DNA of 53,832 nt, filler included, from Dimargaris cristalligena (lineage: Eukaryota): the NCBI GenBank assembly GCA_003614675.1. It is 3 parts of 3 records of this genome, joined end to end, with 100 filler letters (N's around TTAATTAATTAA, not from the genome) between each part and the next. Parts side by side here need not be neighbours in the genome. Positions count along the whole stretch, not along the records: positions 36,040 to 53,832 come from ML002789.1; 2 more parts are not named here. One strand, given 5' to 3'. Position 1 is the stretch's first letter. The number at the start of each line of letters is the position of its first letter. Shown in pieces: positions 15,729 to 51,037 of the stretch. The notes below the pieces were generated by a model, which was given only the letters and a program-made list of their open reading frames with translations, ran no database searches and was not told the origin of the DNA. The translations under genes were made by a program, and so were the position numbers.

Positions 15729-15961
15729 GCAGCCGCTTTCCCCCCTGTCTAAACAACTCTACAACTATACTACCACACTACACTCCAACTTCCTTGCTAC
15801 CTACCTATATCTATAATACCCGCCTCACACTGGCCTAATTCTTATTTCGGCAACTTATTTTTTTTAATACACCCTCCTCCCTTTTGATATTCCCCGCGGC
15901 CTTTATACCTTTCTATTTTCACCCTAACCATCTAGTCCAACCATTTCTCTGGCCTACAACC

Positions 15962-16795
15962 ATGGACACCTCTCCCCAAATGTTCAAGCGCCGCTACCGC
16001 GCCACTCCCTCCCAGGTCCGCTTGTTGGAAACCTACTTTATCGAGGACGAAACCCCGGACGCCGGCCGCCGCGAGTTCATTGCGCAGCACGCCGACATGC
16101 CCGTTAAATCGGTCCATATCTGGTTCCAGAACCGCCGGGCCAAGAAGAACCTGGAGCTCCGCAAAGCCGGGCGCCCCATCCCGCCCCGCTACCCGTCACT
16201 GCACAACTTTAAACGGTTCCTGTCGTTGCCCAACACCTACATCTTTTGTACCGCGGCGGGCTCTAAGCTGATCACTGGTAACCGATCGGCTTCAGCTTCG
16301 ACTTCGCCTTTGGCTTCCCCATCGGTTAATAATAGTAATGATAATGCTACCAGTGCCATTATTACCCCGCCGCTCTCCCCTTCCCCGTTGGTGCTGGGTG
16401 GGGACAGCCGGTCGCAACACCATCTCCAACTCCCGCCTCGTCCCGCGCACCATTCGCACGGTCACCATCCCTATTACCGCCCTTCCGCCGGGCCAGCCAG
16501 TCCCCGATCGGAATACAGCGCCTCGGATCACACCATTTCATGCGAGTCTTCGCCCATCACCTCCCCACTCCAGTCCCCCCGCATGATGCCCCGCTGTCCC
16601 TCGACTGCGACCCTGCCGCGGTCTTCCTATGCGGGACCCGTGACAACTCCTACTTCTACTTCTCACCACCACCACCACCACCACCACCCTGAGGAACATA
16701 GCACACAGCAACATTTGAGCTGCGCTACTTTGGCTAGTTCTACCCCGACCACCACCACCAGCCACAAGATGAACGTCTCCTTCCTGCTTACCTAA
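15962..16795 (+). CDS. Homeodomain transcription factor (277 aa, no intron needed)
   Basis: KRRYRATPSQVRLLETYF...VHIWFQNRRAK homeodomain; S/P/T/His low-complexity tail ending KMNVSFLLT; first plausible ATG at 15962. Confidence 0.92.
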   Translation: MDTSPQMFKRRYRATPSQVRLLETYFIEDETPDAGRREFIAQHADMPVKSVHIWFQNRRAKKNLELRKAGRPIPPRYPSLHNFKRFLSLPNTYIFCTAAGSKLITGNRSASASTSPLASPSVNNSNDNATSAIITPPLSPSPLVLGGDSRSQHHLQLPPRPAHHSHGHHPYYRPSAGPASPRSEYSASDHTISCESSPITSPLQSPRMMPRCPSTATLPRSSYAGPVTTPTSTSHHHHHHHHPEEHSTQQHLSCATLASSTPTTTTSHKMNVSFLLT

Positions 16796-18797: not shown

Positions 18798-21700
18798 TTA
18801 CCAAGTGTAATCGAAACGGTCGAGCGTATCCACCGCATCTTGCACATCCTTCTGGGCCTTCTTACGCATGTAGAAAATGGGACAGTCCCGGCTAGTACAA
18901 ATCACCTCCTGGTGCAAACTCCCCTGGCACCGCTGGCACTGGGTCCATAAGCGGGCATACCGCGTTTCGACCGTATTCACTACTTCTACTTGTTTACGGT
19001 ACAGATCCGGGGCGCGGTCCCGGCATTTCTCGCAAACGGCTACATTGCCCTGGGCCTTCTTAATGGGGGTCTTGCACGACAGGCAGGTCAGGGACTTGAC
19101 CGTGAATTTGGAGAGGCCCCCCGTGGTGGGAGCCGATATCTGGATCGTCCGGGTGTGCTCGCCCGACAAGAGCTGGTTGAATTTGTCCCCCAAAATGGGT
19201 TCGAACAGCCGTTTAAGCGGGTTAGCCAACTGCTGGTCTAGGTAATAGCGCGTATCAATGGGAATGTTGTGCTCTAGGACGTACATGGGGTCTTCTGACT
19301 TTTCGTACGCCGCCGCATTTTTGGTTCCTTTGATAATGACATAGGGCACTCGGTCACCGAGCTGGGGAGCCGATCCCGCGTCACGCTTCCGCATGCGTTC
19401 GGCCAGTTCGACGTGGGCCTGGCGCGCGGCATAATCAGTCTTACTCAGGGCTTTGGTGATGACAAGCTGGGACATATCAATCTTATTTTGCAGCAGGTCA
19501 CTGATGATCCGCTTGGTATAGCTCAGCGCCCCTTCCACATCACGCTCAATCAGAATTCTGCGGAGACAGGTTTCCATCACAATTTGAACCAGGCGGCAGT
19601 TGTCACGGCGGACCGTCTAATAGAGCAGGCAATTCGGAATTGACCATTGGGCGACCAGTGGATTGAATCGTGTGGTACAAAAATTATATCGGGTTAGTGA
19701 AAGTAGAGGGAATGGGTAGAATTGTTATGTCAAAGGTCGATTGGGCGGTAAAAGGGCAATGTGCAATTTGCCCAGGTAGTGTAATTAGTCAGGTGCAACG
19801 TACCTCAATACCCTTGGTGTCCATTTTATCGTATTTGTCGGGGTTGGTCCAGTATACACCAGCGTAGCGCTTCTTACTAATTAGCAAGTACGGGAAGTAC
19901 ACTTTTTCGAATTCCAGTTTAATCGGATTCACGAACTTGGTGGTCACAAATTCAGCAGCTTCTCTACCCAAGGCCATCGCATCGGGTAGGTTCTGGGTAC
20001 CGAATTTAACCATCACCGAATCGGTATCACCGTAAATGACCTCGGCGTCATGCTGGTACCCATTGGCGATGGTGTATTTCTTTTCTACCTCCTACATATA
20101 GTCAACCCGGTGTCATAATAAAATGTATAGGGGCAAACACCAAATATCAGTTGGCTAGTTAATGATCAAAATGATACCAATTAGTTAGGTGTAATAAAGG
20201 CCAGTGGTCTTATACCACCCAGATTAAGGTCACTCTCCCTTGACTTCCTTCCCGATTCCCAACGTATGGGGGATAGAATGTCCATTAACTTACCATTTTG
20301 GTACGATCAATCATTTCCCGCCCATATGACGTGACACTGGACGAAATCTGTAGACACGGCAGGCCTCCACGGGTAGCTCCAGTAAAACCATACACGGAGT
20401 TAGCGCTGATCTTCAAAGCCAATTGGCGACCGTCGAGCACGGCCCGCTTAAAGGGGTCCGTTTCGCGTTTAAGGTCTGCCTTGGCGCGTTTACGGGCGCT
20501 GAGTAGATTATCCAACACGGTGGGCAAGAGGCCCCGCCGCCGATGGGCCTTGACAAAGCAATCGTTGTTGGGGGTCACGACGTAATCGACATCCTTGACC
20601 AGTTTCATGGATTCGATGGTGGAGGTTTTGAGCAGCGAAGTGTAGCATAAGTTATGGGCCATCATAATCGAAGGGTACAGCGACGCAAAATCGAGGGTGG
20701 CGATAGGAATATCGTAGTAGCCGCTGCGGGGCTCTAGGACCGTGGCCCCTTCGTACTGCTCATCGCCGCCCTGATCAGTCAGAGTGGGAATCACAAGGCC
20801 TTCCTGGAGGGTACGCCGGTACAACTGGGTCATGACTTTGATCTGCTGACCCCGGGTGAGGATATAATTGAAGGGAACTCCCGTCACACGAGCCATTTCG
20901 ATGTAGTTGATGAAGGACATCAGTTTGTCCATCAGGCGAAGGGGCAGGTAAGCGTCCTTTAGGCAGTAGATGGCGAGGCGGCGACGCGTTTCGTCGTTGC
21001 CGTTCTGCAGGTCGGTAATAATCGAGTGGTGCACATCCTCCTTTTGCTCGTCCAGAAACTCCGCACAGACCGAATTGAGCGAATAGGACCGCAGTTTGTA
21101 ATCACGCTGCATGACCTGGAGCATGTCCAGTTGGAGGCGGCCGAAGAGGGAGGTCGTCATATTGTCCCGCGTTCCGTAGGCCTTGGACGAAAACCGGGAA
21201 CTGGTGACCGTGACCGGTACGCCGGCCAACCGACCGATATAGGGAAACCGGTCCACTTTGAGATGGGCCGCCCGGTCAAAGAGATAGGGGAAATCGAAGT
21301 TGGATGTATTGTAGCCAATGACCAAATCGGGGTCGACTTCCGCGAAGAATTTACTCCATTCCAGCAACATTTCCGCCTCCTTTTCAAAGGACAGGGTCTG
21401 GGCCCCCACAATCGGTGCACAGGTGTCCAGGGTAAAAATATTCCGGAAAAGGGGCTTGGCCTGGCCCTGCACTTTAACTACACTGGCAATCTGGATGACC
21501 GGGTCGATTTTGGCTTCGGGGAAAATACCCCGACGGCCCGCGCATTCAATATCGAAACTAAGAATACGGAGGGGGGCGATATGGGACCACTCGGGCTCGT
21601 CGGGCTGGTGGCTTACCAAATCCTGGTAATCGATGTCGACTTCGATTTGACAGGTACCCGTTTTCGCACCATCAGCCCGAAGCCGGTAACTGCCGGCCGG

Positions 21701-22554
21701 AAGTTCCACCCAACTGGCGCCTTGGACACGGCAATCCACCATAAAGCGCAGCAGGTACCGCAAATCGGCCTCGTAGCACGTCGCGGAGTAGGTATTGTAT
21801 TGGGGAATGTGGACCCCTCGCTCAATCGCTTTGCGGACCATGGTCATGAATTTAGGCATTCTGATGGTGATTTTTAAAAAAGGGGCCGTTACATTGCCGT
21901 GGTATCCCCAGACGCTCTCCCGCTCGCACAGCTCGGCCTGCTTAACGGGATCCGGGTTTTCAGGGTTTCCACAGTGGCTGTTTAGGGCTTGAGTGACACT
22001 GGGAAGGTGGGCCGCTTGAAACCCAACGGGGGCCGGAGCATAGAAGTACGGGTAGAACTTATGGACATGGCACAACACACTGTTCCCTTGGCCGGTGGAG
22101 CCGAAAAGCCTGATGGTGGGATGTTCGATGATCCGGTTTTCATCAGATAATGACTTGATATTCTCGTCGATTTCAATTTGTTGAAAGGCAATTGAGTCGC
22201 TAGCGGGGTTTAGCGGGGGGACGGGGTTGCGGGCCCAGAGCAGGCGGGGATTATGGGCCGCTGATAGAAATAAGGTTCGCACGTGGGGTGGTTCCATAGT
22301 AGAGGTTAGTTGATGCAGGGCAATAGAGGGGTTGCTTTGTTCGGTTTAGAGGCCACTGAGCACCCATTAGTAGGGCGGTATGTCCACCCATTTCGAGGTT
22401 GGAAAGTAAACGGCACGGGGGCCATAGTCGCCGCCTCTTTTCACGCATGGCAACCATGGGGAATAGAGGAATGTGACCTACCTTCCGCAGCCGATATGGT
22501 TGGATTAGCCTCGCCCGACGGGTCATTGCCTTGTTTATCAGTTGAGGTCACCAT
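18798..22554 (-). CDS. POL3: DNA polymerase delta catalytic subunit; exons 22554-22482, 22260-20294, 20091-19804, 19616-18798 (~1048 aa)
   Basis: Exo[40 protein letters not shown]-terminal CysA (CLSC..CEKC) and CysB (CQRC..C..DC); phase-consistent splice sites; the small first exon is the least certain part. Confidence 0.97.
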
Positions 22555-23889: not shown

Positions 23890-26800
23890 TCAGGTCATGC
23901 CATGAATATCAAAGTCACTCCGTTCTTTGGCCACCTTCATCTGGGCTTCCCACATTTTCTTGAAGATGCCGTTGGGGATTTTCTTCAATTCCGCGAACGT
24001 ACCCCGTTCGGCAATTTTGCCCTCCTTGATCACCAGAATCTGCCTGGCGTGGATGATAGTCGGCAAGCGATGGGCAATGACGATGCACGTTTTGCCCTTT
24101 GTGCCGTCGTTGATGGAATTCTGGACATTGCGCTCGGTGATCATATCCAGGGCGGACGTGGCCTCGTCCAACAACAGAATCTTGGACGGGCGGACCAACC
24201 CGCGGGCAATATTAAGCCGTTGGTTCTCCCCCCCGCTGAATCGCGTACCCCCCTGGTAAAGGAGGGTTTCATAACCCTTGGCCAAAGAGGAAATCTTTTC
24301 GTGGATCTGGGCCTTTTGGGCGGCGCCTTCGACTTCGTCCTGGGTTGCACTCATGTTGGTCGCGGCCGTACCGTACTGAATATTGAACTTGATGGACTTT
24401 GGCAGAAGGTGGTTTTGCTATACATCGGGTAGGGTAGATAGGTCCCGCAAAGTGACAGAATGTAAACAGAGAAAATCAGTACATATTGATAAATTAGAAT
24501 ACATGTACAGGATGTTATTTTGGCCGGGAAAACAATCAACTAAATAAGAATATTTGAGCTACAATCAAGCCAACTCTTCGTGGTTAGATCACGCGATGGG
24601 TGTCAACCAAATGTTAACGTCCGCTTACCTGAGGAATAATGGAGATGGACTTGCGCAAATCGGCCTGTTTTACATGTCGCACGTCAACGCCATCGATTAA
24701 AACGCTACCCTGGTCAACGTCGTAGAAGCGGGCAATGAGATCCATAATAGTCGTTTTACCACCGCCCGTTGCGCCCACGATGGCCGTGGTTGTCCCGGCT
24801 TCGACCGTAAAGCTGATCCCTTTGAGGACCGGTGTCTTCTTCTCATAGCTAAAATGCACGTCCTTGAATTCGATGGTACCTTCGGAAATATCCCAACTGT
24901 CGGGGGCATCTTCGGACTCGACCATGTCATTATCGTTGTCGATTAGGCGCAAAAGGGTCAGGCTGTTGGAATGCAGGTTGTACACGTCCTGGCCTAATCC
25001 GACCAGGTAGGTCAGGGGACGGTAGGTTACTTGGAAATGGCCCAGGAAGAACAGAACGTCACTCGACTTCATATGGCCCCGGGCCAACAATCGCAGACAC
25101 ATGATGGTACCGATCACATGGAGCAGCTGGTGAATGACCCGGGATCCCCGCTTGACCACTTCAACGACCCACTTATGGTGATCGGCGGTGCGTTCAGTTT
25201 CATCGAGCACCTCCCGGTACCTTTTGCTGTGGTACTCTTCGCCCGAAAATTGCTTGACGGTCTCGGATTGGCGGAGGGCGGTCATACACTGGTCCATCTC
25301 GTCATTGGTATTGTAGTTGGTGTACCGATAGCTAGCGCGTTCGGCCGGGGTGAGGATCGAGGATTGGATAATGGACCACATTGCCATGGCCAAAGCTAAG
25401 GGGATGAAATACGAGTCGTACACCCATTGGTACTGGTACACGGAAGCCAGCACGCCAAATAGTGAAGGGCCCAGTTTCATGACGAATAGGTCGACAAAGG
25501 AGCTAAGGGCGTGTTTAGACTGGAAAAAGACGTTGCTCATATTGCTGCCGTCCTTATCCACATGGTAGCGCATGGGTTTGGCCTGGATGACGGAGTAAAC
25601 GAATACCTCACACTTGGCGTCAATGTAGGCGGTCAAACTGTGGTTTTCGCTACCGCTGTCCTTGATCCAGGAGCTATTGGCCACCTGGTTGAACATGTTG
25701 GCCACACCATATTTGGCCAGGGCCGGAAAGACTAGGTCGCGATTGGTTAGCGAGTCGAGGAAGTTCTTGTAGAACCACGGCTCAAAGGAGCTAGTCCACT
25801 CGATGACGAACTGGAACACCCAATTGGTCACGAACCGATACACCATGGCCAAGTCGAGCGGGAACGCTACATCGTAGATAATCCGGCAGATACGGCTGAA
25901 GATTTCAACCAAGGAATACTGAAGAAGGTCATTTTCGTCTTCATCTTCATCTTCATCCTCCCCATCTCCCTCCTTTTTGTCCTTCTTTTCCTTCGCTCCA
26001 CCCTCCTTATCATTATTTTCACCCTTGACCTCTTCGTCCTTTTTGTCCTCCTCCTTTTCGACGGTTGTTTTCTCCTCCGCCTTGTTCTCACCGGGGGTTT
26101 CGCCACCTTCCGCCTTCTTCTCGCTCTCCTCCGACTTCTTCTCTTCTTTCAAGGCGGCCTTTTCTTTCTCGGTACTCTCCTCCGCCTTGTCCGCATCCTT
26201 CTTTTCTTTCGCGTTGGAGAGATCCTCGGTCTGGGTCCCTTTTTCTACTTTGGTGGGCGTCCTATCGGTGAAAATACCCGCGGCGTGATAACGTAGACCA
26301 AGCAGTGGAATGATCAGGTTGAGGGCGGAGAGGGAAAATTTGATGGCCGCGATACCAAGCGTGAGTCGGTGAGCGAACATACCAGTGGTGAACGCGTTGT
26401 CACTAGGGGACCAGTAGTTGAAAAGGCTCTGGCCAAGTTCCCAGGCGTGCATAACTAAGGCCACGGTCCAAACCTGTAGCCATTGGGGAAACGGCTCCGC
26501 TTCTTTGCTGACATAGGACAACAGGTCGGCGGCGTAAAATAAGTAATAGTAGCCCCCGAACATAACGGCGAGTCCAATTTGTTGGGTCATTGCCGAAACG
26601 AGCCAGGGGGACCAGTCTGCGGGCGTTTCTGGGTCAATGTAGGCGGCATATTGGATAACGCAGATTTCGATGTACATGAATCCGAACACCATCCACATGG
26701 TACGGTGGATGGCCGGGAGCCACACCTTTTCTGAAGTGGGCTTTTCCCCGGCACTGGACCGTTTCTTTTTGCTTTCTGAAGGGTTGGGATGATGGATAAG

Positions 26801-27194
26801 CAAATACGTAGAGAAGCCTCATGAGAATTCTATTTAACCAGAGTGTAAACCCAAGGATGGTCAACTCAGGGCTTACGGTCGATGAGGTGAATATTCCAAA
26901 TTATCTCTTCCGTATCCTGGTGGTGGGGGGAGTAAACTACCTACTTTTTTCCTTGGGAAGCTTGATCAAGTGGTGGCCTAGCCGGCAGCGCCGCATAATC
27001 AACGATGTAATTGCCGAGAGATAAACTAGCGTCTGTCCCGTGGGGTGCAGCCGAAATCCGGTATACAGGGGCGAAATCTGGAATAAGGCGGCCGCTCCAG
27101 CGATTAAGGCGGCGCCTTCCCACCAAACCTCAGCGGGCCTTAGATTCACTGCCATAGTTGGCAGGGAAATGCCAAATAAATCCTTCATATCCAT
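23890..27194 (-). CDS. ABCB half transporter, HMT1/ABCB6-like, with N-terminal hydrophobic extension; exons 27194-26945, 26775-24629, 24417-23890 (~974 aa)
   Basis: Walker A GATGGGKTT, signature FSGGENQR, Walker B ILLLDEATSALD, IAHRL; TM segments precede the NBD; extra N-terminal TM block then a K/E/D-rich linker. Confidence 0.88.
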
Positions 27195-30805: not shown

Positions 30806-31317
30806 TGTGGGAGAGGGAGTAGGAGAATAATAGGAAATGCTAGTAAGATGAAGGCAAGATGGTCGGGTAAAATAGAGGAGTTGGAAGTAGAGGGCATAGG
30901 GAGGAAAAGCCCTTTCGTCTTGCCTTCGCCATCGGCAGGGGGGGGACCCATTCAAGTATACGCCCCGCGCCCCTCTACATCTTTGTACAAGCAAACTGCC
31001 CGGTCCACTGGTCAAGTGGGACGAAGCGCATGAGCAGGAGCCTTGCATTGTGACGGTGGGGATTACGGTACTGGCAAAGCCCACGGAACTGCTCCCACAT
31101 GGGTTTTCATAGCTACCAATATTTATGAGCCTGACCGCCTAATATTGAGTACCCTGTTGTCACGGTTAACTAAGTTGGACCTTGCCTGCGTTATATACTC
31201 TATTATATTTTATATATATATTTCATATTTACTCAGCAGCACGCCGTACTCTCCTCGCGCATTGAATTGCCCTACTTCTCCCCTCTCCCAAAGCTGCACT
31301 CTATTCACCCCCCCCTC

Positions 31318-33691
31318 ATGTCGAGCCCGCCGGCCGCTGCCGCTTCCAATCTTAACCTCCAGGCCATCCTGGACCACGACGATCCAGATGCTCTCAATCT
31401 GGTCTCCGACAGTGATGTCGACATTGAGGCCGAGTCTTCCGAATCGAATTCCACTGGTCCACCCAATGGAGCTGTGACCGGCAACGGCAATTCAGACTCC
31501 TCCTCCGCCGCTGGCTTCTGCGTCGAATGTCAGGATCAGGCAGCTAACGTTCACTGTAACCAGTGCAGCGAGTCCTTCTGTGAGGTCTGTTGCGCCATGT
31601 TGCATCGCACCGGTAAGCGGCGTGAGCATACTCTAGTGCCATTGGGAAAGCCCTCCGGAACTGAGGCGAACCCTGCTACAGGAAACCCCCCGCCGTCCTC
31701 GTCGACGGATTCAAATAATAGTGAGTCTGCCCTATCCGATGACCCTGCGCTTAAGGTAAGCTGTCGAATTTCCATTTTGGCCAAGTCTTGGCTATATATC
31801 CCTAACCAGCGAGCCCCTAACCACGCCCCATGCTAACAGTTTTCCACGGCCTTCTAACCCATCTTCCAATATTCCCACTCACTTTATGCAATACGATGTG
31901 CCTTCTTATTATGGCGGCGAATCTACCCTATGAACCCCTCACCAGACTTCCGCAGCCGAGGTCGACTTTGATGCCAACAGCGGCCAGGTCACCTTCATCC
32001 AAGACGGCCAGGACTTCGGCACGTGGATCACCGAGCGGGCCAAGTTTATTCCCCTGCGACTGACCCTATCCGAGCGTAAATTTCTGCGGCTGCTAGAGTC
32101 GGCCCTAAATGTATCCGAATATACGGACCGGGTCGATATTCTCAGCTACGGCAACAAATCCCGCCGCATGGTGACCCAAATCAAGGACCTCTGTGCTATT
32201 CTGTCCGGCCTTTTGTTGGCCAGTGACTACCGGATGGGCCAGAAACTCTTCGAGGACCGGGCCTTCGTCGAAAACGCCGAGTTTTTCCAGGACGTGTTTG
32301 AAATTGGCCGGCGGCACAAAATCATGAACCCCGAAAAAATGCGGGACGCCTACGGCAAACTGATGTACCTCCTGCAGGACTCCATGATTCCCGAAGTGCA
32401 GGATTTATTACAATTCAGCTGCGTCAAGCCCATTACGACTGTCTACAACTTTCTGGAGGAGGGCGGGGCTCCAGAACTACTCCAAGACCCCCTAGTCCGG
32501 TTCGCCACGAAGGAAATCATCTCCGAGGGCAAACCGCGCTCTAAAGTCCAAGCCGAAACCCGCCAGAAGGAGCAGGCCGTGGAGGCCCTGTGCCGTAAAT
32601 ACGCTAGCCCAGAACTCAAACCCGAATCCATTCGCCAGTGCCTCTACAGCATCGGCGATAACCACAGCTACCTGCGCACCAACCGAGACCCGTGTGACCG
32701 CATGCTTCGGTACCTGGCCCAGTACTTCAACCCCCAACGCACTGAAGCTCCCGAATTTTCCCTGTCCATCGCCAGCGGTCGGTCCGGGGCCCGACTCTCC
32801 CATGACCACGAAACCCAGTACTACTACGTCAACCAGACCCTCACACTCTGGCGCGAAATCGCCCACGAAATGTTTATGCTGTGGAGTTTAGCCGACCAGG
32901 ACCTGCTGGCTGCCCGGAACTACTACCGCCTCAAGGATACCGGCCAGGGCCTGAACCGGGTCCAGGGCTGTCCCCGCATTTCCCGGGCCATCCACAATAT
33001 TCTCCACCGGGCCCAAAAGGCGGCAGGCTACTGGGTCGGTTCCTCTGTGGTCCACCTCGGGGACCGGAATGTCCCCAATGCCCTCATGTTCATTGACAAG
33101 TACAACCAGGTGGCCAGTATTCTCAACCCCATTGTGAGCTGTCTGGTATACCTGGATACCCTACCCGCGGCCCTGGGGATCACCGAAAACGGTACCGCCG
33201 ACCAGGCCCGGGATTCGACCACTATCCCTACGGCGGCAGCAGCATCGTCTGCCACCGTCCCCCTCCTCAGTGCCATGGGGAACACCCCGTACACTTCGAG
33301 TTCGAATAATTCCTCCACGGGCTCGTTCTTTTCTACCCTGTCATCGACCCTCTCTAACACATTCTCGGCCCTCGGCGGCGGAGACCCGTTGGCCTACAAC
33401 GGAAACCTCCCCCTGCACGCCCAGCCGTACTACAAGGAACACGCCAAGGGACTGTACCAGTATATCTTGGCCACCTTTGGCAATGTCGAAACGTGCAAAA
33501 AACTCATCCTGGCCGACTTTTTCCGGTACGCCTTTGACGGATCTGGTGCGGATAATTTCTTCGACGCCGGGTCGTGTATCGACGGCCGTTTGACGTCAGC
33601 GTGGAATTGGTGTTCGAAAGTAGAGAAAAAACCATACTACCCCGTTTTCCTGCTATCGGGGTTTGTTGGGTTTAACGGCGAGGGATTCTAA
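31318..33691 (+). CDS. UPF0652/DUF2009 family protein with N-terminal B-box-type zinc finger; exons 31318-31755, 31946-33691 (~727 aa)
   Basis: CVECQDQ..CNQCSESFCEVC..LHRTGKRREH; ERAKFIPLRL, EIGRRHKIMNPEKMR, WVGSSVVHLGD.NVPNALMFIDKY, FDGSGADNFFDAGSCIDGRLTSAWNWC. Confidence 0.9.
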
Positions 33692-36890: not shown

Positions 36891-38827
36891 TTAAGCGCGG
36901 AGAATGCGCATGGTGTTGGTGTTACCCAGACCACCCTTCCAGCCCTGAATGGCAATGATGACATCACCACGCTGCAGCAGACCCTGTTCGATGGCCTGGT
37001 CGATACCCCACCGGATACGGGAGTCGACATCCTCCTGCCAGACGATGTGTTCCTTTTGGGGATCGTCAGTGGTGAGACGGGCCTGGGTGTATAGGAAGGG
37101 GTAGCAGCCGCGGTAGAGATGGACCTGGCGGGCGACGAATTCGGACCGGGTGATGGTAAGAATGGGGACCTGGGGACGGTACTTGGAGACCAGGCGGGCG
37201 GAGGTTCCGCTAGTGGACAGGACGACGATGGCGGCGGCGTTCTGGTCCATGCTGGCGCTGACGGCGGAAATGGCGGCGGCTTCGGAAATGCCGCGGGGAC
37301 CGCTGGACAGGGAACGGAGCTCGGCGAAAAGCGGGGGGTAGCAGATGGTGGCTTCGGCCATGGCGGCAACGTGGCTCATCATGCTGACGGCCTCCAGGGG
37401 GTAGCATCCCTTGGCGGTTTCACCGGACAGCATCACACAGTCGGCACCGTCCAGGATGGCGTTGGCCACATCGCTCACTTCAGCACGGGTGGGACGGGGG
37501 TTGGTGGTCATGGACTCCAGCATCTGGGTGGCGCAAATGACGGGCTTGCCGGCGATGTTGCACTTGGCGATGATCATCTTCTGGGCCACGAAGACGCTTT
37601 CGGGGGGAATTTCGATACCCAGATCACCACGGGCGACCATGACGCCGTCGGTTTCGGCGAGGATTTCGTCGAAGTTGACGACACCCTGGTGATTTTCGAT
37701 CTTAACGATAATCTTGATCTGCTTGCCGTCCTCACCCAGCACCTCGCGGATATCGCGCACGTCCTGGCCGGTTCGGATGAAGGAGGCGAAGATCATGTCG
37801 ACACCCTGGGCGACACCGAAGCGCAGATCACTCTTGTCCTTCTCGGACAGGGCGGGTAGATCCACATCAGTCTTGGGCAGGTTCACGCCCTTGCGGCTGC
37901 TCAGCTTGCCGTTGTTGAGGGCCCGCACGCGGACGGAATCTTCCATAATGTCAACGACTTCGAAGGACATGATACCGTCATCGACGAAAATGATCTTGCC
38001 CTTGGAGATGACCTTGGGCAGGTTCTTGTAGTCGACGTAGATGACGTCGGCGGTACCGCACTCGGCGTAGGCCTCGTCCATGGAGAATATCATTTCATGG
38101 CCAGTCTGGAAGGGGACGTCATGACCGTCGGTCATCAAGCCGGTACGGATTTCGGGGCCCTTGGTGTCGAGAGCGATGGCCACGGGGCGGCCGGGCATGA
38201 CCTCCTGGGCCTTGCGGATGTTGGCGATGACGGAGCCGTGGTACTAGGGATATGGATATGGCGAGTGGGAGTAGGAGTAGGAGTAGGAGTAGGAGAGGAA
38301 GACGGTGAGTCCATGGCTAAAGGGGTAGAGGAGGGGTGGGTAAGATGAAAGGATGTGTGCTACCCAGGTACAGGAGGCACGTGGATTAAGGAGCAGGCTT
38401 TAGTTGTCTCTAGATCACGGCTGGGGTGGTTGGTAGATAAGATAGACAACATGATGATTATGATGTAAGGAGCCTTACCTCGTGGGAGCCGTGGGAGAAG
38501 TTCATGCGAACAATGTTCATACCAGCCTGACGGAGCTGGTTCATGACCTCGACATTGTTGGTTTTGGGACCTGAGTAGAAGAAGTAGTAATGGTATAGTA
38601 TAGTACTGCGAAGGTGGATTAGGACAACAGGCAGGCAACTTTAAATGGAATATCTATAAGAAGCAAAGGCGGCCCGCATAGAGAGCCTCTAGACTGAATG
38701 AGGTCAGGCGGATCCACTTACCAATGGTGCAGATAATGGAGCTCTTGCGGTGCTCAGTGGGCTTCATGTCAATGCTGAGCTTCGTAATCCACTCGAGGCT
38801 CGAGTTGATGGAGGCGATACCGGACAT
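36891..38827 (-). CDS. CDC19: Pyruvate kinase; exons 38827-38722, 38570-38479, 38243-36891 (516 aa)
   Basis: [75 protein letters not shown]; strong C-ending codon bias. Confidence 0.98.
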
Positions 38828-40755: not shown

Positions 40756-42269
40756 TCACAACTGCGATTCCTTGGCTTCTTCCCACAGCGTTTTACCCGA
40801 ACACTCGCAGACCTGTTTAGTGTTTTGGAAAGCACCGGCTGACCGGGCCACAATGCCGCATAAGACCCCTGGTCCGCTGTTCCCGTCAATGCCCGACTGC
40901 GGATCATCCGCCCCCCGACGACCCAAATCGTCGGCGGCCTGCGTAATGACCACGGAACGTCCGATAATATCGTCCACCCGAATCCGCCGGCTCTCCAACA
41001 GTAAGTCGCCCCAGCCATCGGCTCGCACCATGATATTGCCCAAGTCGCCAACGTGCCCCGTCTCGGAATCCCCGTGGGTCACCCCCGTGGGATTGAAGTG
41101 AGGGCCCGTGCTGGCCGCCCCGGCGGAAATATTCCCGAGGGCGTGGATATGGATCCCATGGGGTCCAGGAGTTAGCCCACTAACGGTGACGTCAATGGCG
41201 CAGACGTCGGGACTCACTTGGACGATCCGGGCGAGACCCTTACGGTGGCCGGGGTCGGCAAGTTGGGGGTTGGGCAGGTATTCGCTGTCATGGAAAATGC
41301 ACACGGCAGCGCCCAAGTGGTTACCTAAAAGAGGGTTGGGTTGGTGGTATATACAACCAATATCACCCCCGTGGTGGTGGTGGTCCCAAGGCAGACAGGG
41401 TGAATATGAAAAAAGCGAGGTCGGCCGCAGAGTAGACGCGTAATAAGTATAATCGGGGATGTAGAAAGACTTGACGGGATCCGCAGCCACCCCCTGATCG
41501 TTGGGACAAATAGGTTGTTTACGGGACACTGTAGGTTGATTGTGTACCAATTCGCCAAGTCGGGTCGTTTCGGGTCATCCCAACAACAACCTATACTTAC
41601 CATCGACGGCCGATTGGCCACGGACAATAACTGTTTTTCCGGTGTCGCGAAGAATCTGATGGATCTTGGAGGGCGGGGCTAGAGGCCACGCAATAATTCA
41701 CGAACGGTTTGGGTAAAATGGGGAATCCCGATGAGTTTGTCATTAGTAAAAATCGAAAAGGTTGTAGATTTCCCAGATTTCGGGCGCGTGTATAGCACAG
41801 CTATCACTTACCTGTTCCCTCCACGGTTACGATTTTATTAGCGACATCAATATCGAAACGACTAACGCCTAATTCAACGAATGGCATGAATATAGCAAGG
41901 GGCCAAGTTGAGCATGACATAGTGGCGCTACTACGGTTATTAAAGATCCAGAGTGAATAGACTGTTTAAAAACGCACCATTGGCTTTGATGACTAAGCCC
42001 GTTTGGTAATATTCATTCATGGACCATGCCACTTACCCTCGGCTTTAGCCAGCGCCTTTTCCACCGTGTTGGCACAACCCTGGCAGGTCATCTCTACGGC
42101 GAATTCCGTCTATGGTTAGGGTTAGTATTCGTAAGAGCTGGTGTAGGTGAGTGAGGTGCTGCGCTGAGGCTTACGACTTTGAACTGCACAGCTTTTGGCA
42201 ATTAGGGGGCAAGACCCGTTGAAAGCTAGAAAATGCCGCCTCATACTATCGGCCTACCTTGAACGTCAT
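40756..42269 (-). CDS. CCS1: Copper chaperone for SOD1; exons 42269-42258, 42109-42037, 41868-41812, 41678-41601, 41324-40756 (262 aa)
   Basis: HMA domain MTCQGC; SOD-like domain (HGIHIH, GPHFNP, HVGDLGNI); domain III ARSAG..NTKQVCECSGKTLWEE; all introns phase-consistent. Confidence 0.93.
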
Positions 42270-43088: not shown

Positions 43089-44474
43089 ATGGTAAGTCGC
43101 GGTTTTACTGCTCTTAAGTTGGCTCTCAGCCCGGGGTGTAGACCTACAATACACAGTCGACTCTATATTCCGCATAAATCCCCATTCACTCGAACCGAAC
43201 CGAATAACTCATTCACGACTACTAGTTTAAAAAACATTGGATTTTTCCAGGAAAACTTAGCACCCACAGCTATTCGTAAAATCATTAAAGAGCTTCAGGG
43301 CCTTGAGCAGAATCCCCATGAGGGAATCCATGTGGTTACTAATGAAGAGGATATCACTGATATCCAGGCTTGGGTGGCCGGACCAGGTACGTGAAAACCA
43401 CTAAAGAAGCTGGCCAGCTATATGTCGTTACTATATCCTATAACTCTTACGGCACCTTGTCGAGGATATCGTTCGTATTTCTGGTCTAATCGGATACATA
43501 TGGTACCCCCCATATGTATGTCGTTATTCGTATTGACCTCCTTCAACAACTGCATCTTATATAGAAGGGACACCCTACCAGAACGGCTTTTTCCGGATTA
43601 AATTACAGCTAGGCAGCGACTTCCCCAATATGCCCCCACAATGTAAGCCCATATCTATTCAAACCTAGTAGACAACCTAATAATTACGCCCCACAACTCC
43701 GTACCCTTGTCGTTGAAGCTAACCGAGTAACTAACGTATATAAGTACATATACCCACAACGGGGGTTTGATGATGGTGATTCTTATTTATATACTCTCTA
43801 TCTTAGGCTGGTTTTTAACCAAAATCTTCCACCCGAATGTATCAGGTAGTGGCGAAGTGTGTGTCAGCACTCTCAAGAAGGACTGGAAGAAGGAACTCGG
43901 AATCGGGCATATTCTACTGGTAAGCTAAACACGCCATTCATGAACATTTGTCCTTTTTTGGGGTAATTTACTAGAAAGAGGGTAGGTATATCAATGTACT
44001 CAAGTTGGGACAGCTTTATCAGAAGCCCTCTGAAACCCGAAACTAGGGGTTTATATATACAGCCCCGCATTCGAATACCTGACTGATACACCAATATTAA
44101 TGCTCCGCGTGACCTTTCTAAACCCGGGAAAATATTAACAGACTGTCAAGTGTCTGTTGATCGTGCCCAACCCCGAATCGGCCCTCAATGAAGAAGCCGG
44201 GCGATTGCTTTTGGAACAGTACGACGACTACGCCAAACACGCCCGTTTAATGACCGACATTCACGCCACCTCCGTACCCAGCGACATTAAGGCCAAACTA
44301 CTTTCCACTCGGGTGACGGAGGCGTCTCCGACGGGGATGGTCGATGGTGCTCTTCCCCCGACTGACTCGGCCATCGATTTGGGAGCGGCTTCGACGGCCG
44401 CCGGGACCACCAAATCGGCCGAGTCGAAAAAGAAGCAGGCGGATAAAAAAAAGAAGGCCTTAAAACGGCTCTAA
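43089..44474 (+). CDS. UBE2S: Ubiquitin-conjugating enzyme E2 S; exons 43089-43091, 43251-43386, 43565-43642, 43807-43919, 44142-44474 (220 aa)
   Basis: [66 protein letters not shown], basic tail [10 protein letters not shown]. Confidence 0.93.
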
Positions 44475-46043
44475 ACCTCCCTAGGGCTGAACGCCTCAAT
44501 CTCTATTATGTTCCACCGTTTCACCCTAACTCTGATCTTTTGGGCCTTTTTTCATGTTATCCATGCCAACGACAATCGTTTCAGTAACCTCCAATATATA
44601 TATACGGTTTTTCTTTTTTGAATAACCTAGGCCAATTGCCGTAAACGAAGACATTTGATGTCATGGTGGGAGTTGTCAATAGAGTGGCAATATCCAAATG
44701 ATTTAAGAATGCCCAAATTGAGTTGTAGGTAGTAGCAGCTGGTTTGGCAGTAGGATTGGATATAGTATGAGCTGACCAAGAGCCACTCCCTAGTTTCTAA
44801 ATGAAGAACAGAGAATATTGCTGCAGCTGCAACCTCCAATGGGGGAATGCAATAGCTGGACTTAACGATAGGGAAGAGTTTCAACTCAGTCGCATATCGA
44901 ACAAACCATTGAGTATGGATAAAATGAAAAAGACCAAACTTCTATACAGTCATGTTGGATATCACCCATACTAGTGAAAAAACAAAGAATCGAGCGGGGA
45001 ATGAATAGGAGATAGTTGGATTATCCATTATTTTTGTAGATTTTTTTTCATCAATAACCCACAATCATGTCCACATCCCTAATTCCTGTGAAGCTTGTCC
45101 TATAAGTACCGCCTTCTGCCGCCCTTTCATCTTATCCCTCACCACTGACTGTCAATCGACTTTTACTATACAGTTTACCGACTCTTTTCTTTGGGGACAC
45201 TGAGAAGAACCGCTATTGGAGCACCACTAACGGGAGGGAGGTATTTTAATAATACCGGCCCTCCAGTCACTTGTGTTCTAGGGAAAGTCCTCGGACATTC
45301 TGGCAGCAAGTGCCAAAGGTAAACTGTTGGTCAGGGCTGGCGGAGCCGCCTCTATTCACCATATAGGGGCTGTCGGAGATGGGTTTCCCTTGGGATTCCC
45401 GGAGGCATCGTGCTTTGGTCAGCCCCCGGACATCGTCATAGCACAGTTATGCGGTTGGGGAGTGCGGTTCATTATGAACCCATTCCTTCAACTCAACGAG
45501 GCTCATTCACTCAGTGTCCCCTTCCCCCTTTTTTTAGTCCATAACAAAAAATAGTAATAACCAGTAGAAATCACTATCATCGACCCGGATAGAGCTGATC
45601 GCAAAAATTATTGTGCAAGAGTGTAGTCAACCATCGTGCTTAGCAGGTGGCAACAGCCAGCCCCCGCTTAATGTCATTCAAAGTACACTAATGATCGGGA
45701 CTGGAGTTAACAACTATGCTGACCGCTTGGGATTACTACAATAGGTGTAATGCTTATGCGGACTCCTTTAAATTAGCGTATCAACTAAGCAGCAATAGAT
45801 TGAGCCTGCACCTCTAATGTAAGCTTCCGAGCAACAATATTACTGATCACACCTGCTTATTATTAGGCATTATGTGTATTACAGAAATCAGTGATTGAGA
45901 TTGGATGCTAATACGGGAAAGGGTAAACAGTAAATCATTAAGGCGGCAAAATCCCGCCTTCAAAGGGACAATTCAAGGATAAGTGGGGGGGGGGGCATGT
46001 CCACTGGCATGGGCTCAACGGAATATCCCCCAATCCCCAACGG

Positions 46044-46364
46044 TTAAAATATAAATGAGCCACTTCCACCACCGATAAATAAATTTCTGTAATTGGCGGG
46101 AAGTTTTATCACAACCCGGGGAACGAGATGGATACTCGAGGCATCGGTGCCCCGCTTTTGGAATCGCTGCTGGGCATTAGAGCGGCGGTGGGCACGGGTG
46201 GTCAGCGGGGCGGATGTCTCAGGCGGCGATACCGCTCTCCGTTTAGTTACCGGAAACGACAGTTCGGCTTCAGCGGGACCCGGGGCGGCCGTCGCCTGGG
46301 GTGCTACGAGGAGGACGGCCGTGGTGGCGAAAAGGGCCATGGCGTACACACTGGTGACCTTCAT
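46044..46364 (-). CDS. Small secreted prepro-peptide (106 aa), function unknown
   Basis: Signal peptide MKVTSVYAMALFATTAVLLVAPQATA|AP; basic sites TKRR, HRR, QKR, VPR; GC-rich coding-like composition against AT-richer flanks. Confidence 0.75.
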   Translation of the reverse strand: MKVTSVYAMALFATTAVLLVAPQATAAPGPAEAELSFPVTKRRAVSPPETSAPLTTRAHRRSNAQQRFQKRGTDASSIHLVPRVVIKLPANYRNLFIGGGSGSFIF

Positions 46365-47945
46365 GGAGAATGGGTCGGTGGGGGGGGAGGGTAGGTTAGG
46401 GTGGGTGAGAGTGTTAAAATAGTAATTAGGGTAGCCCGTATAACACTAAATGGAAGTCCAAGGTAGACTGCCGTTAAAAAAGCTGGTCGTATTATATAAA
46501 TAATTCAGGGTTCGAAAAAGTATAAATGATGGCTAAGCAGAATGCAATAGCTTAGGCGGGAGGAGGTGGTGGTGTTGGCGGTTTCAAGTGGGGTGAAAGT
46601 AGTGCTTAAATATCAAAAGCTGAGGTTCATCCCCCCCCCTTTGGATCAAGCCAACTGTGAATCGCAGGCTTTCCCTTATTTGGGTTAGACTCAAGGGTAC
46701 CAGTCTACTTCCCTTACTGGCTAAACGGTATGGTTTTCTCAAATGCTACTAACACACGGTGTAGCAAATGCGCGTGTGCGCTATTGAGTGATTAACCCCG
46801 AGAATCCGCCTGATTGATGCGGAAGTCGCGATTAACGTATGGCCCATTCGACATAGCCGACGAATACAGATTGAAGTGGAATATTATACTATAATACGTA
46901 TAATCTACATTGGTGTTGGCGAGGTAGCTAACTGAAAGAGCCCAGTCGACCAATTGGTGGGATAGTCTATGAATTGACCACGTCCATCGTCAATCATCCA
47001 GCCCTGAATATGCCGATCCCCCAAGCGATAAGGCGCCCATGGAGGAAATGGAGGACTGTTCAGCCCACCCTATTTGGTAAAATAGGGATATACTACACGG
47101 CTCTGTGGCGCCTGCTATGCACTAAAAATAAAACCGGTCGGTTTAGATAGCGAATATCCAAACGGACTGTCATTAGGATTATCACCAAGTGTGACCATCG
47201 GCTGGTTAATTTACCCGTTCGATGAACTACAATTGCTCCTATTCGCCCTAAAGGGCAGGGTAAATTATAATCGCTTCTGTACATTGGGAGTCTCTTCAAA
47301 TAGCGATTGGTATAGCCGGGCGCCTATGGATTTATCACATTATCGATGGCTGAGAAATATGGGTATTGGTCACCGATATGAACTAGGGGGGTCACACGGT
47401 AGGAGAGTCCTGTGGCTTTAGTGCACTGTCTACAGCGGACTCTGACATGATGTATACCCCCAGATTGATGTTGCGGAGAAACATTTACCCCGTAAACTAT
47501 ACCGCTACTCCAAACGGCAAATCGGTGAATGTTGAAGCCCACCCCGAAGGATGGGTCCTATTCACCTCCCTCCCAGCACACCCGCCTTAAATATCTCCCA
47601 AACACCGAGAATGCCCAACCGCGTTAGCAGAGAGTGGTATCAAACGGCTCAAGAAGAAGTTTCTACACATCGAACTTGGCGGGAGAGGGGTGGGCAATAT
47701 CCATATTTTTCGAAGGACAATAGGTATCCCTTTTGTGCATTATTGATCAACCTTGAGGGTCATTTACCAACATGGGCGCGTGCGTGTGTGCGAATTAGAG
47801 ACCCTTGGAAGCCAAACCAGCTTGGTATGAACATGCTGAAATGAGGGTGAAGGCCAGCAGCCTAATACGGCTATAGCTGAGCAATTTTATTTAGTTATCC
47901 GTATTACTATAAGTGTATTATTAGCCATCCAATCTGTTATTCTAT

Positions 47946-48089
47946 ATATGGGAGTAGTTCAACAAGGCTGTATAACGAAAAACCCATTTGATGAGGCAAC
48001 TACTACTGGTTGAAAATAAACATCCCACCAACTTTCCCATACACATATCGGTTAAACCCTTATACAACCAAGCTGAACTTTACCCATAT
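47946..48089 (+). mobile_element. 144-bp MITE-like element, copy 4
   Basis: ATATGGGAGTAGTTCAACAAGGCTGTATAACGAAAAA ... TTATACAACCAAGCTGAACTTTACCCATAT; same length as the other copies. Confidence 0.85.
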
Positions 48090-49047
48090 GCTTTTTGTAC
48101 TCTATGGTTTAGGTATCTGGTCTACTAGCCGGTATAGCTGTATATGGTCAAATCAGACTTACCATGTATGCTCCTAATGGCTTGGCCGGGGGTCAGATGC
48201 CTCTAGTCCTAGTGTCGAAGTAAACGGCGTAGCCAATTCGATTGCTCCGCTCAGATGCACATCAACATGGAGTTTCCAAACTACCTTTATGATCGCCCAC
48301 CGCCTATCCCCCTCCCCTTTAGACAGCCTAATAACTTTTATTTTGCCGTCATACGGTCTCCCATGTTCGCTACTTCCCGGACTATAACCATGTGGTTGTG
48401 AACTTGGGCCATCTGACAGGATTTGTTTGCCTTTGGTAACCAAAACCATACCCCTGTGCAGTCTCTCTGCCCCAAGATTGAATCGTAGTAATAAATCGAT
48501 GGTCAAAGGTGTTTGAGCCAGTTGTTATCTTATTTTTTCCGTCCGACTGGTTATATATTTTCAGGCAACCATTACTTATCCGAGACATTAGAATATCTTG
48601 GTTATCTATTATATCAGGGCCACTAAATCTGGCCGCGGACATTTGCCAATAGCACTTATCGTATATCCCCAAAATTGACCTTAAAAACTTTAGGGAAATC
48701 TTGCATTCACTATGCTTTTTATATTTCTCACAGGGTGCGCCTCTTTCATAGAATAGATTCCATTTATTTAGCTGATGAGATGTTTGGTAGATTCTATCAG
48801 GATGTTAACCTAATTTAAATTGGTGATAGCCACCTCTCTAAAACTGAAATATATAAAAAAATGAGAAAACAGCAAGCTCGGCGACACCAAATAAGCCAAC
48901 AATATGTGTTAATATACCTACACTGGTGGGGTTGAAATATATAGACCGGATATTGGAAAACCTCTATTTTCGGTTGCAGTATCGGGGGATACAGGCTAAA
49001 TATTGCCCCTTCTATTAGCGAGTATTGGCCGGGTTCTCTGCGGTGTT

Positions 49048-51037
49048 TCACGAAGGATTCAATATATTATAAATTCCAACGTAGTCTTCACTTCCAGTAT
49101 TGGATGTCACCGGTGTGTCCAGTACCACTTCAAGTTGCTCGAGGTATTCGGGCTTCAGGCTTTCGGAAAATAGGTCGAGACTTAAATAATTCGTTGCCCC
49201 GGGTCCCATATTCGATACCAAAGGTAATTCATCGCGGTCGAAGTTCGGCATATATGCCAGTAGGCCCATTTGGTTATCGTCGGTGAGGTGAATGTGCGTA
49301 ATGATCGGCAAATCATTAAATTCGTCGTAACTATCCGCATCTTCCGCGATTTCCTCATTGGCCAAAAAGTCGGGTGAAGCTCCGACATTAGAACCGGAAT
49401 CGGTCTTTTGAATTCCTTCACTAGGTTGGGCCAACTCCCATTGGGAAGCCAAGAACCCCGCCCCGTTGGGTAAATTGATCATTTTCATAATATTCACCAA
49501 TTCCCATTGGGCTTTACGCAGGTCATTGGCCGCAATACCTGAGCTGGGATCGATGTACACCTTGGTAAACTCGGTTAGCCATTCTGGTTGTTGAGCAACG
49601 GCAGCCAAAAGGACGGCGAATTGGTTGAACGAATGGTAAATTCTAAGGCCCTTGTCATGTTCCGGGTAAGTGCGTTCCAACCACAGTTTCAAGCCGGCCA
49701 TAAAGTCCAGTAGCTCCTTGAACCGAAGTTCAGTGGACAAACGGGTCATAATCATGGGTATGATGTTTAGAATCAGACCATCGAGCCACTTGGGTAGATC
49801 GGTAGTAAAGGCTACAGGGGCAATAGCAGGCTGGTTGGGGCTGTCGGTATCCAACAAAATTGGGTCGGGAAATATTTTTCGTCGAATCTGGTCCACCTTT
49901 TCCAGCTCCTTCGGAGGGCAACTTTCACGACTGGACAGGACCTTTAGTGAGGAAGTCCCCAAAATATTGAACATCTCCAACAATTCCTTCCCATCATTTT
50001 GTTGGTCCACCAGGGCCAGTAGGGGAAAGCGAGACGCCAGGATGGGTGGGGGCAGTGTCTTGGTATTGATATACTGCCAAGTAGCAGCGGCGGGCTGGAA
50101 AAAGGGATTGTTCTGGTTGGACAAAAGGTATTGGTAGAAGTCGGATACCACTTTCCGTGGAATGAAATGGTTGGGGTTACGGCTGGACCGTTTTATTAAC
50201 CCCACAGTTGGATCCCAGGAACTGACCGCATTGAGAAACAAATTGGCCGCGAGAGGTTGGGCCACTAGCTGGTTCCAGGCTTGAAATACTTTGTACGGCT
50301 CGGAAGATTGACTGTCCTCGGCCAAGGCAAGAGCCGTTTTTAGAGAATCGTATAATTCCTAAAAAGTTTCATAATTATATAGAGACAGTGAAGTGAGGTC
50401 AGTCAGGGATGTTGATAATTCGAAAAAAGGGTTGGAGTGCCGACCAACCAAAGGATCCGACTCCAATCCGAAGACCAAGAACACACACCAAGTATATAGG
50501 GCCCTGGAACAGCAAGGCGGGACTTGATTGTGGGGAAATATCATTTCAATTTCCTGGCTGGGCCATCAATTGCCAGGCTGGCACCATACAGCGGCAAAGC
50601 TGTAAGGAGGCCCAGTACCAGGGACATGGTCTACTTGAGGTAGGTGTGCACACGGGTGCTGATACAGCTAGTGTGATATTGAGGCACCAGTGTTACCCAT
50701 TGTTCCCGCCGAAATATACTATTACAATTGTGCTTACCTGTGTCAACTTGTAGTCAGCATTTAAGGCGTAGCTTTGATATTCTTTAGACAATTGGGACAG
50801 ATGGTGGCGCGTGAGCGGCGAAGAGTCTACAGCGATCTTTTGCATCAGCTCGCCAGGCAAGCGGCCCGAATGTTTAAGCCCTTTCACCTTGGGACTCTGT
50901 TCCACATCGAAGTCGTCGCGGTCGTGGGAGTGCATGGATATACTGGGGGCCGCGGATGCATATTGAATGGCTAAACTGAAAGCGAGGCCCATAAGAAGGG
51001 GCCACCCCATTCTGCGACCTACTCGTTGGTTCGACAT
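49048..51037 (-). CDS. Secreted hypothetical protein with N-terminal F-box-like motif; exons 51037-50738, 50358-49048 (~536 aa; alternative ATG at 51010)
   Basis: CAG|GTAAGC donor, CTGAC branch site and TTTTTAG acceptor join two ORFs in phase 0; signal peptide ..WPLLMGLAFSLAIQYASA|AP; LPGELMQKI...LSQLSKEY at 50860-50777. Confidence 0.8.

Follow-up and report, generated by a model that had tools for sequence, protein, structure and literature searches.

Known F-box effectors and the Dimargaris locus

F-box proteins (PF00646/PF12937) act as substrate receptors of the Skp1-cullin-F-box (SCF) ubiquitin ligases. VirF of Agrobacterium is a bacterial F-box effector. Similarly, AnkB of Legionella and GALA/RipG of Ralstonia are F-box proteins that are made by the parasite and use the Skp1 and SCF of the host, according to the available parts of the two sources (PMC2790608, PMC13243912). 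In the present work, we analysed a gene of the fungus Dimargaris cristalligena that may act along the same lines. It occupies positions 49048..51037 on the minus strand of a 53,832-nt stretch of DNA (the window, along which all positions are counted), its source record is ML002789.1, and its product is predicted to combine a cleavable signal peptide, an F-box-like motif and a large helical domain. We tentatively propose that this protein, together with its numerous paralogs, could be exported into a fungal host and hijack the SCF ubiquitin ligase there.

The Dimargaris protein resembles F-box proteins in that a helical motif of ~45 aa near the N-terminus is combined with a large, variable and potentially substrate-binding domain. 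It differs from them in scoring under the cut-off of every Pfam F-box model, in having a C-terminal domain that is not WD40, LRR or Kelch, and in carrying a predicted signal peptide, which would remove it from the cytosol that contains Skp1. With AnkB, GALA/RipG and VirF it would share the placing of a parasite F-box protein in the host cytoplasm and the borrowing of the host SCF; the homology considered here is confined to the F-box-like motif. While those bacterial effectors depend on type III/IV secretion and have ankyrin or LRR repeats beside the F-box, the Dimargaris case would involve a eukaryotic maker, a signal peptide for the endoplasmic reticulum (ER) together with a haustorium, a fungal host and a new second domain.

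A fungal counterpart has been described for Rhizophagus clarus, in which NLS_30765 (542 aa) is predicted to be secreted, matches the F-box-like family PF12937 (2.8e-07) and was suggested to disturb signalling in the host by way of SCF, as stated in the accessible part of PMC4746824. The first-pass annotation of the window had regarded secreted F-box proteins as exclusively bacterial, which appears too narrow in view of this predicted fungal case. By description only, the two resemble each other in being fungal, similar in size, predicted to be secreted and F-box-like. However, NLS_30765 is a single in-silico candidate of a plant symbiont with a clear Pfam match, whereas the Dimargaris protein belongs to an expanded family of a parasite of fungi.

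Host-translocated effectors of haustorial fungi and oomycetes, as generally known, also form lineage-restricted multigene families, in which a signal peptide and a variable linker precede a short conserved N-terminal motif and a C-terminal domain that varies. The Dimargaris gene resembles the genes of such effectors further in that it adjoins ~5.6 kb without a recognisable gene. Unlike these effectors, the Dimargaris proteins are large instead of small and Cys-rich, and their motif is F-box-like and not a known uptake motif. Among the features that define a host-translocated F-box effector, only manufacture by a parasite is at hand for Dimargaris; delivery and recruitment of SCF are what we infer.

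Gene structure

The two-exon structure described in the first-pass annotation was recovered in every element, with the same coordinates and on the minus strand. As read from the sequence, the coding region comprises 536 codons counted from Met1. Exon 1 (50738..51037, minus strand, with the ATG at 51037) holds codons 1-100 and ends with ...YKLTQ. It is separated by a 379-nt GT-AG intron in phase 0 (50359..50737, minus strand; GTAAGC...TTTTTAG) from exon 2 (49051..50358, minus strand), whose 436 codons (101-536) encode the alpha-helical domain and are followed by the stop codon TGA (49048..49050, minus strand). The junction YKLTQ|ELYDS is placed identically in both public models of the gene, those of NCBI and JGI, and the identity of the JGI model with the exons of the window was checked. 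In addition, the paralog P0005 aligns collinearly with the window protein across the exon junction. A word-indexed search with exon 2 retrieved a single database protein with 100% identity, the "hypothetical protein" H4R33_001588 of D. cristalligena (P0003 hereafter).

A divergent family in one species

A HMMER search against 1.84 billion representatives returned 25 proteins at E<=0.001, i.e. the query and 24 relatives. With the query included, 22 of them reach E<=1e-10 (21 without it) and 7 reach E<=1e-30. D. cristalligena, represented by two assemblies, is the sole species in all 27 clusters that were looked up. Judged from these sequence comparisons, the gene is a member of a family of at least ~25 paralogs that is restricted to D. 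cristalligena in the databases searched. The proteins range from ~430 to ~630 aa, and in most full-length members the signal peptide is followed by a variable linker, which is often acidic, and then by the motif and the helical domain.

In a maximum-likelihood tree of 25 rows, the terminal branches measure ~1 substitution per site, implying that the family is old and divergent and did not originate from a recent burst. The window protein forms a clade with P0158, P0028/P0007, P0005 and P0008 (support 100/99). By tblastn, no paralog was found elsewhere in the window. We found no report of such a family in the literature, where the supplementary tables of Dimargaris genome papers could list members as part of the secretome; the terms "F-box" and "signal peptide" are absent from the available part of PMC9866270.

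Several of the short family matches are truncated models whose full-length versions are present in the other assembly. Across the assemblies, P0012 (373 aa) and P0166 (221 aa) correspond to P0160 (629 aa), and P0013 (374 aa) corresponds to P0161 (501 aa).

Conservation and structure of the F-box-like motif

The F-box-like motif covers residues 60-87 (LPGELMQKIAVDSSPLTRHHLSQLSKEY; 50777..50860, minus strand), as delimited by conserved columns, by the helices of an AlphaFold2 (AF2) model and by the Pfam matches of paralogs. Only six columns are invariant across 18 full-length sequences (11 clusters plus alleles from the second assembly), and the Pro, Glu and Leu of the motif account for three of the six. 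The mean pairwise identity is 0.33 within the motif and falls to 0.16 and 0.14 in its flanks, while the best blocks of the C-terminal domain reach 0.29-0.36. In terms of sequence conservation, the motif is thus the conserved island of the N-terminal half.

Over 14 family sequences the motif aligns without gaps, with a near-invariant Pro and invariant Glu and Leu, in the spacing LPxE(L/I)...I...(11)...L..(V/L/T)SK.(W/Y). The ungapped F-box-like spacing, noticed initially in the window protein, is therefore a property of the family alignments as well. A regular expression for this spacing, which was composed after the motif had been seen, finds the motif itself as its only match in the six-frame translation of the window (107,660 residues) and has no match in 200 residue shuffles. 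In the AF2 model of P0003, the motif region folds into helices at residues 28-37, 40-49 and 51-81 (P0003 numbering) with a predicted local distance difference test (pLDDT) score above 90. Three predicted helices, conserved positions and an ungapped register, which together describe an F-box structurally, are all found here, notwithstanding the polar residues at motif positions 13 and 18. The register relative to the canonical F-box consensus was taken from general knowledge of that consensus, and the ranges of the Pfam matches (profile positions 1-30 and 1-38) back it.

The conserved block was also compared by eye with uptake motifs of the PEXEL or RxLR type and rejected as such, because the spacing does not fit.

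Is the motif an F-box?

The clade-mate P0008 (motif LPNELIQIIIRNASPLSRHRLSRTSKCN) matches PF00646 with 22.0 bits, above the curated cut-off of 20.5 bits (E 1.4e-4). This match spans residues 50-79 and profile positions 1-30, a segment homologous to the motif of the window protein. Matches below the cut-offs were obtained for P0023 (PF12937 E 0.0068, F-box_4 0.089, PF00646 0.13), P0167 (PF12937 E 0.0021, PF00646 0.042, F-box_4 0.066), P0161 (PF12937 E 0.13) and P0163 (PF12937 E 0.18). All of these matches lie on the motif and begin at profile position 1 or 2. Five paralogs thus match one superfamily at equivalent positions and in a shared register, which is not to be expected from chance. UniProt gives the name "F-box domain-containing protein" to seven of the 23 clusters named in UniRef, including the one with the JGI model of this gene (P0168); presumably, names of this kind are based on the F-box profile of PROSITE/InterPro. 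A feature search of the ESM-Atlas with residues 20-85 placed an F-box cluster first (0.91; 58% of its members carry PF00646), with a second one at 0.86, whereas F-box clusters appeared only at 0.83 and 0.81 with the whole protein. As only 118 of the 256 features are shared, the top rank is to be taken as a lead and not as proof.

A number of observations weigh against the F-box interpretation and the effector proposal built upon it. The window protein, searched as exon pieces, as P0003 and as P0168, matches no Pfam family at E<=10 and does not reach a curated F-box cut-off (PF00646/PF12937/PF15966), and P0008 is the only scanned family protein that passes one. The UniProt names are assigned automatically. 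When 177,635 sequences of solved structures were searched at E<=10, the hidden Markov model profiles of the whole family and of the motif alone retrieved matches at the level of chance and no F-box chain. Canonical F-boxes are hydrophobic at motif positions 13 and 18, which are Ser and Arg in the window copy. The very confident prediction of the motif helices in a monomer may mean that they are packed against the helical domain of the same protein and not against a partner. P0009 and P0015/P0034 possess the signal peptide and the helical domain and have no recognisable motif. Finally, the restriction of the family to one species may reflect the poor sampling of Dimargaritales.

The motif stretches of P0008 and P0023 yielded no phmmer match among the solved-structure sequences. 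In a collection of 5.8 billion proteins, searched at the longer lengths, all matches of the motif profile at E<=10 were family members, 10 in number. A model of the isolated motif (46 aa), a domain too small to judge by such means, gave no Foldseek match and only generic helical matches in VIA-align (Z<=4.4), with no F-box chain among the best 50 rows.

As a separate observation, the motif of P0164 is degenerate; its degeneration there and its absence from P0009 and P0015/P0034 could represent either motif loss or an exon missed in the gene models.

Several of these points would also suit another explanation, namely that the proteins constitute a secreted or secretory family in which the LPxE...L..SK motif is a structural part, being a degenerate or convergent look-alike of the F-box that does not bind Skp1. 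Such proteins would act outside the host cytoplasm, at the cell wall, at the haustorial interface or in the extracellular space, or inside the host by another mechanism. The missing Pfam match of the window protein, the failure of the family profiles to find an F-box chain among solved structures, the two polar core positions, the confident helices of the monomer and the motif-free members P0009 and P0015 are all in favour of it. Against it stand the match of P0008 above a Pfam F-box cut-off, the F-box matches of four other members at the identical place and in the same register, and the exact F-box spacing, which is retained without gaps. Moreover, the motif equals the best blocks of the helical domain in conservation, unlike its flanks. 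Taking both sides together, we regard the look-alike explanation as somewhat unlikely, and we consider it probable that the motif is homologous to the F-box.

The F-box reading of the first-pass annotation thus holds in part. It is carried by the match of P0008 above the cut-off, the weaker matches of four members and the UniProt name, while the window protein itself has no Pfam match and the family and motif profiles found no F-box chain among solved structures. The HMMER comparison with PF00646/PF12937 that had been suggested to check it was likewise divided, being negative for the window protein and positive, for PF00646, in P0008.

The helical domain and the mature protein

Exon 2 was described at first as a helical domain of ~435 aa without a known family, and our analysis agrees with this description. 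The domain (~420 aa) contains the conserved blocks PLLALVD, M.RL(A/S)T..RF, N(R/Q).A(I/V).LAAV and LTDDNQMG as well as an acidic disordered loop (P0003 residues 379-410), and exon 2 matches no Pfam family at E<=10. The AF2 model of P0003, which was run on the 25-sequence family alignment, has a mean pLDDT of 81.8 and a predicted template modelling (pTM) score of 0.82, with exon 2 being mostly helical. Foldseek found no match to the full model in the PDB at E<=0.001. In VIA-align against 48,161 chains, the best match of the full model was a designed helical repeat protein (Z 7.6, root-mean-square deviation 6.3 Å, 158 residues), followed by rows of HAT, TPR or solenoid-like proteins. By the calibration of the tool, this best match is no more than a common helical arrangement of the predicted model. 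As modelled, the exon 2 domain is therefore alpha-helical and solenoid-like, and is without a recognisable family or a specific fold match.

The mature protein contains a single Cys and lacks N-x-S/T sequons, internal transmembrane segments and a KDEL-type end, and the Cys content of 17 family members is 0-1.5%. This composition, as deduced from the sequences, is consistent with a reducing cytoplasm rather than with the extracellular space. Mature proteins so poor in Cys and sequons would be unusual as extracellular proteins, which further disfavours a look-alike motif in a family that acts outside the host cytoplasm.

Signal peptide and start codon

Residues 1-29 constitute a predicted signal peptide (MSNQRVGRRMGWPLLMGLAFSLAIQYASA|AP; 50951..51037, minus strand), which was recognised by a heuristic analysis of the n-, h- and c-regions and by conservation among paralogs. 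The n-region MSNQRVGRR carries a charge of +3, the h-region GWPLLMGLAFSLAI has 13 residues, and the c-region QYASA|AP presents Ala at both -3 and -1. The best 10-residue Kyte-Doolittle mean of the N-terminus is 2.30, by a heuristic of our own and not by SignalP. A charged n-region, a hydrophobic h-region, small residues at -3 and -1 and a position at the true N-terminus, as expected for a Sec-type signal peptide, are thus all present by heuristic evaluation. The signal peptide is followed by an acidic linker, residues 30-59 (APSISMHSHDRDDFDVEQSPKVKGLKHSGR; 50861..50950, minus strand), which is poorly conserved (mean pairwise identity 0.16 over 11 paralog clusters) and has pLDDT values below 50 in the AF2 model. 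The linker of ~30 aa noted earlier is hence present as described.

The residues upstream of Met35 are conserved from Met1 in the close paralogs P0005 (MPNHRVSRNLGW..., at greater length MPNHRVSRNLGWAILMGLILGLSIQKATAAPGLSM) and P0028 (MTSQRVNRNIGR..., at greater length MTSQRVNRNIGRTIFTSLALSLLITKVTTAPGLSM). Distant paralogs have N-termini that are unrelated in sequence and yet equally signal-like, e.g. MKAQRISIVGLVVLGLAVQSVVS|AP and MNYLNWVVLALTLSIHLPS, and a signal-like hydrophobic N-terminus occurs in ~17 paralog clusters, as judged from heuristic values and, for the longer gene models, by eye; P0011 has a weaker hydrophobic core than the others. Because the signal character persists despite this turnover of sequence, the predicted signal peptide is very probably functional, and the heuristics point to its cleavage and to secretion of the protein. 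The cleavable signal peptide anticipated by the first-pass annotation is accordingly well founded as a prediction, with its sequence retained in the closest paralogs and its general character in the divergent ones.

We also observed that a small residue and Pro directly follow the predicted cleavage site in 17 of the 18 N-termini compared. The pair is mostly Ala-Pro and occasionally Ser-Pro, Thr-Pro or Ile-Pro (P0001, P0005, P0028, P0008, P0009, P0011, P0020, P0023, P0162, P0163, P0164 and others). It might serve for processing, e.g. by a dipeptidyl aminopeptidase, or belong to the context of the cleavage site.

The choice of the start codon bears on a further alternative, in which the protein serves the SCF ligases of the fungus itself as an ordinary endogenous F-box receptor, multiplied by a lineage-specific expansion, and the hydrophobic N-terminus is either bypassed by a start at Met35 or is not a secretion signal. 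F-boxes are established to act in the cytosol or nucleus, and lineage-specific expansions of F-box proteins are common. The NCBI model, P0003, starts at Met35, the third Met, and has 502 aa; it therefore has no signal peptide and places the F-box at the N-terminus in the standard architecture. The JGI model of the second assembly (BJ085DRAFT_33931, P0168) starts at Met10, has 527 aa and retains the hydrophobic core. Met1, in turn, is the first in-frame ATG of the open frame, and the 238 nt upstream of it contain no ATG in any frame (51275-51037). The context of Met1, with A at -3, is also better than that of Met35, with T at -3. Since the residues from Met1 onwards are conserved in P0005 and P0028, the comparison indicates that both the NCBI and the JGI model are 5'-truncated (region 50935-51037, minus strand) and supports Met1 as the start. 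This conservation as protein of the residues before Met35, the signal-like N-termini of ~17 divergent paralog clusters, and the arrangement of charges, with positive residues preceding the hydrophobic core and acidic ones following it, which would place the F-box in the lumen, make an endogenous receptor unlikely.

Tethering of the F-box protein to the endomembranes or mitochondria of the parasite by a signal anchor that is not cleaved off or by a sequence targeting an organelle, for which the single N-terminal hydrophobic segment of an otherwise transmembrane-free protein and the existence of organelle-tethered F-box proteins in other eukaryotes could be adduced, is very improbable, because the core is short (13 residues) and leads into a canonical small-x-small site with the conserved Ala/Ser-Pro, and because the charges would again put the F-box in the lumen, where no Skp1 is available.

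Proposed mode of action

In a protein retained by its maker, a secretion signal and an F-box-like motif are contradictory, since the secretory pathway contains no Skp1. According to the available part of PMC9866270, Dimargaritales parasitise fungi by means of an appressorium and a biotrophic haustorium. D. cristalligena belongs to this order, and the earlier guess of a mycoparasite was hence correct on the evidence of that source. For a fungus that parasitises other fungi through haustoria, export into the host cytoplasm seems to be the simplest way to reconcile the two features.

We propose that the protein would first enter the secretory pathway of the parasite, and would then be released at the haustorium and arrive in the cytoplasm of the fungal host. 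There, the F-box-like motif would dock on the conserved Skp1 of the host and so join the host SCF ubiquitin ligase, and the helical domain, which differs among the paralogs, would pick the host proteins to be ubiquitinated. As every step beyond the signal peptide and the F-box-like motif, i.e. delivery to the host, binding of Skp1 and hijacking of the ligase, is pure inference, we put this mechanism forward in full only as a real possibility, to which we assign somewhat less than an even chance.

Surroundings of the gene and side observations

In the ~5.6 kb beside the gene (43.4-49.0 kb), 10 open reading frames (ORFs) of >=90 codons were scanned, none of which has a Pfam match. This stretch (43400-49000) is either gene-sparse or occupied by unrecognised or intron-rich genes. 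Elsewhere in the window, housekeeping genes were identified on the minus strand for the DNA polymerase delta catalytic subunit (18801-22345), an ABC transporter (24617-26818), pyruvate kinase (36894-38243) and Cu/Zn superoxide dismutase (40759-41574). On the plus strand lie further housekeeping genes, for ureidoglycolate lyase (1108-1920) and a homeodomain protein (15839-16792), as well as an ORF with a B-box zinc finger (ANCHR-like B-box, E 7e-07) directly followed by an ORF of a DUF2009 non-canonical E2 (E 2.7e-207), both within 31174-33691. The latter two ORFs may belong to a single gene as its exons, or they may be neighbouring genes.

No Skp1 was found among the ORFs scanned in the window. 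A short-motif DNA scan detected intact, intron-free Skp1 genes on IMG/VR giant-virus metagenome contigs (L003, L008, L014), and P0037, a Skp1 from a giant-virus metagenome contig, contains the Pfam domains Skp1 and Skp1_POZ. The Skp1 genes on records of 1.8-2.5 Mb (L006, L007, L012, L013) show an apparent intron-like insertion after "...TFNIK".

Implications

To our knowledge, hardly any molecular effectors have been described from zygomycete mycoparasites, and we know of no fungal parasite for which hijacking of a host SCF by imported F-box proteins has been shown as it has for bacteria and viruses. Mimicry of SCF receptors by means of an F-box is itself familiar; an expanded eukaryotic form with a new second domain, directed by one fungus against another, would be new. 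With considerable doubt, we suggest that ~25 diversified F-box-like proteins could be exported to the fungal host, each bringing a different new helical substrate-binding domain to the host SCF, and that they may represent the main effector arsenal of Dimargaritales.

If the motif turned out to bind no Skp1, the genes would still define a large, unannotated, species-restricted and presumably secreted family in an obligate mycoparasite. If the family is exported and does bind Skp1, a eukaryotic parasite would have arrived at the same strategy as the bacterial pathogens. Since Skp1 is nearly identical in host and parasite, one may ask why this strategy would not damage the parasite as well; routing through the secretory pathway is one possible answer. 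The family would then also be a source of ~25 natural modules for targeting substrates; these would have a new fold, and their targets in the host could be mapped.

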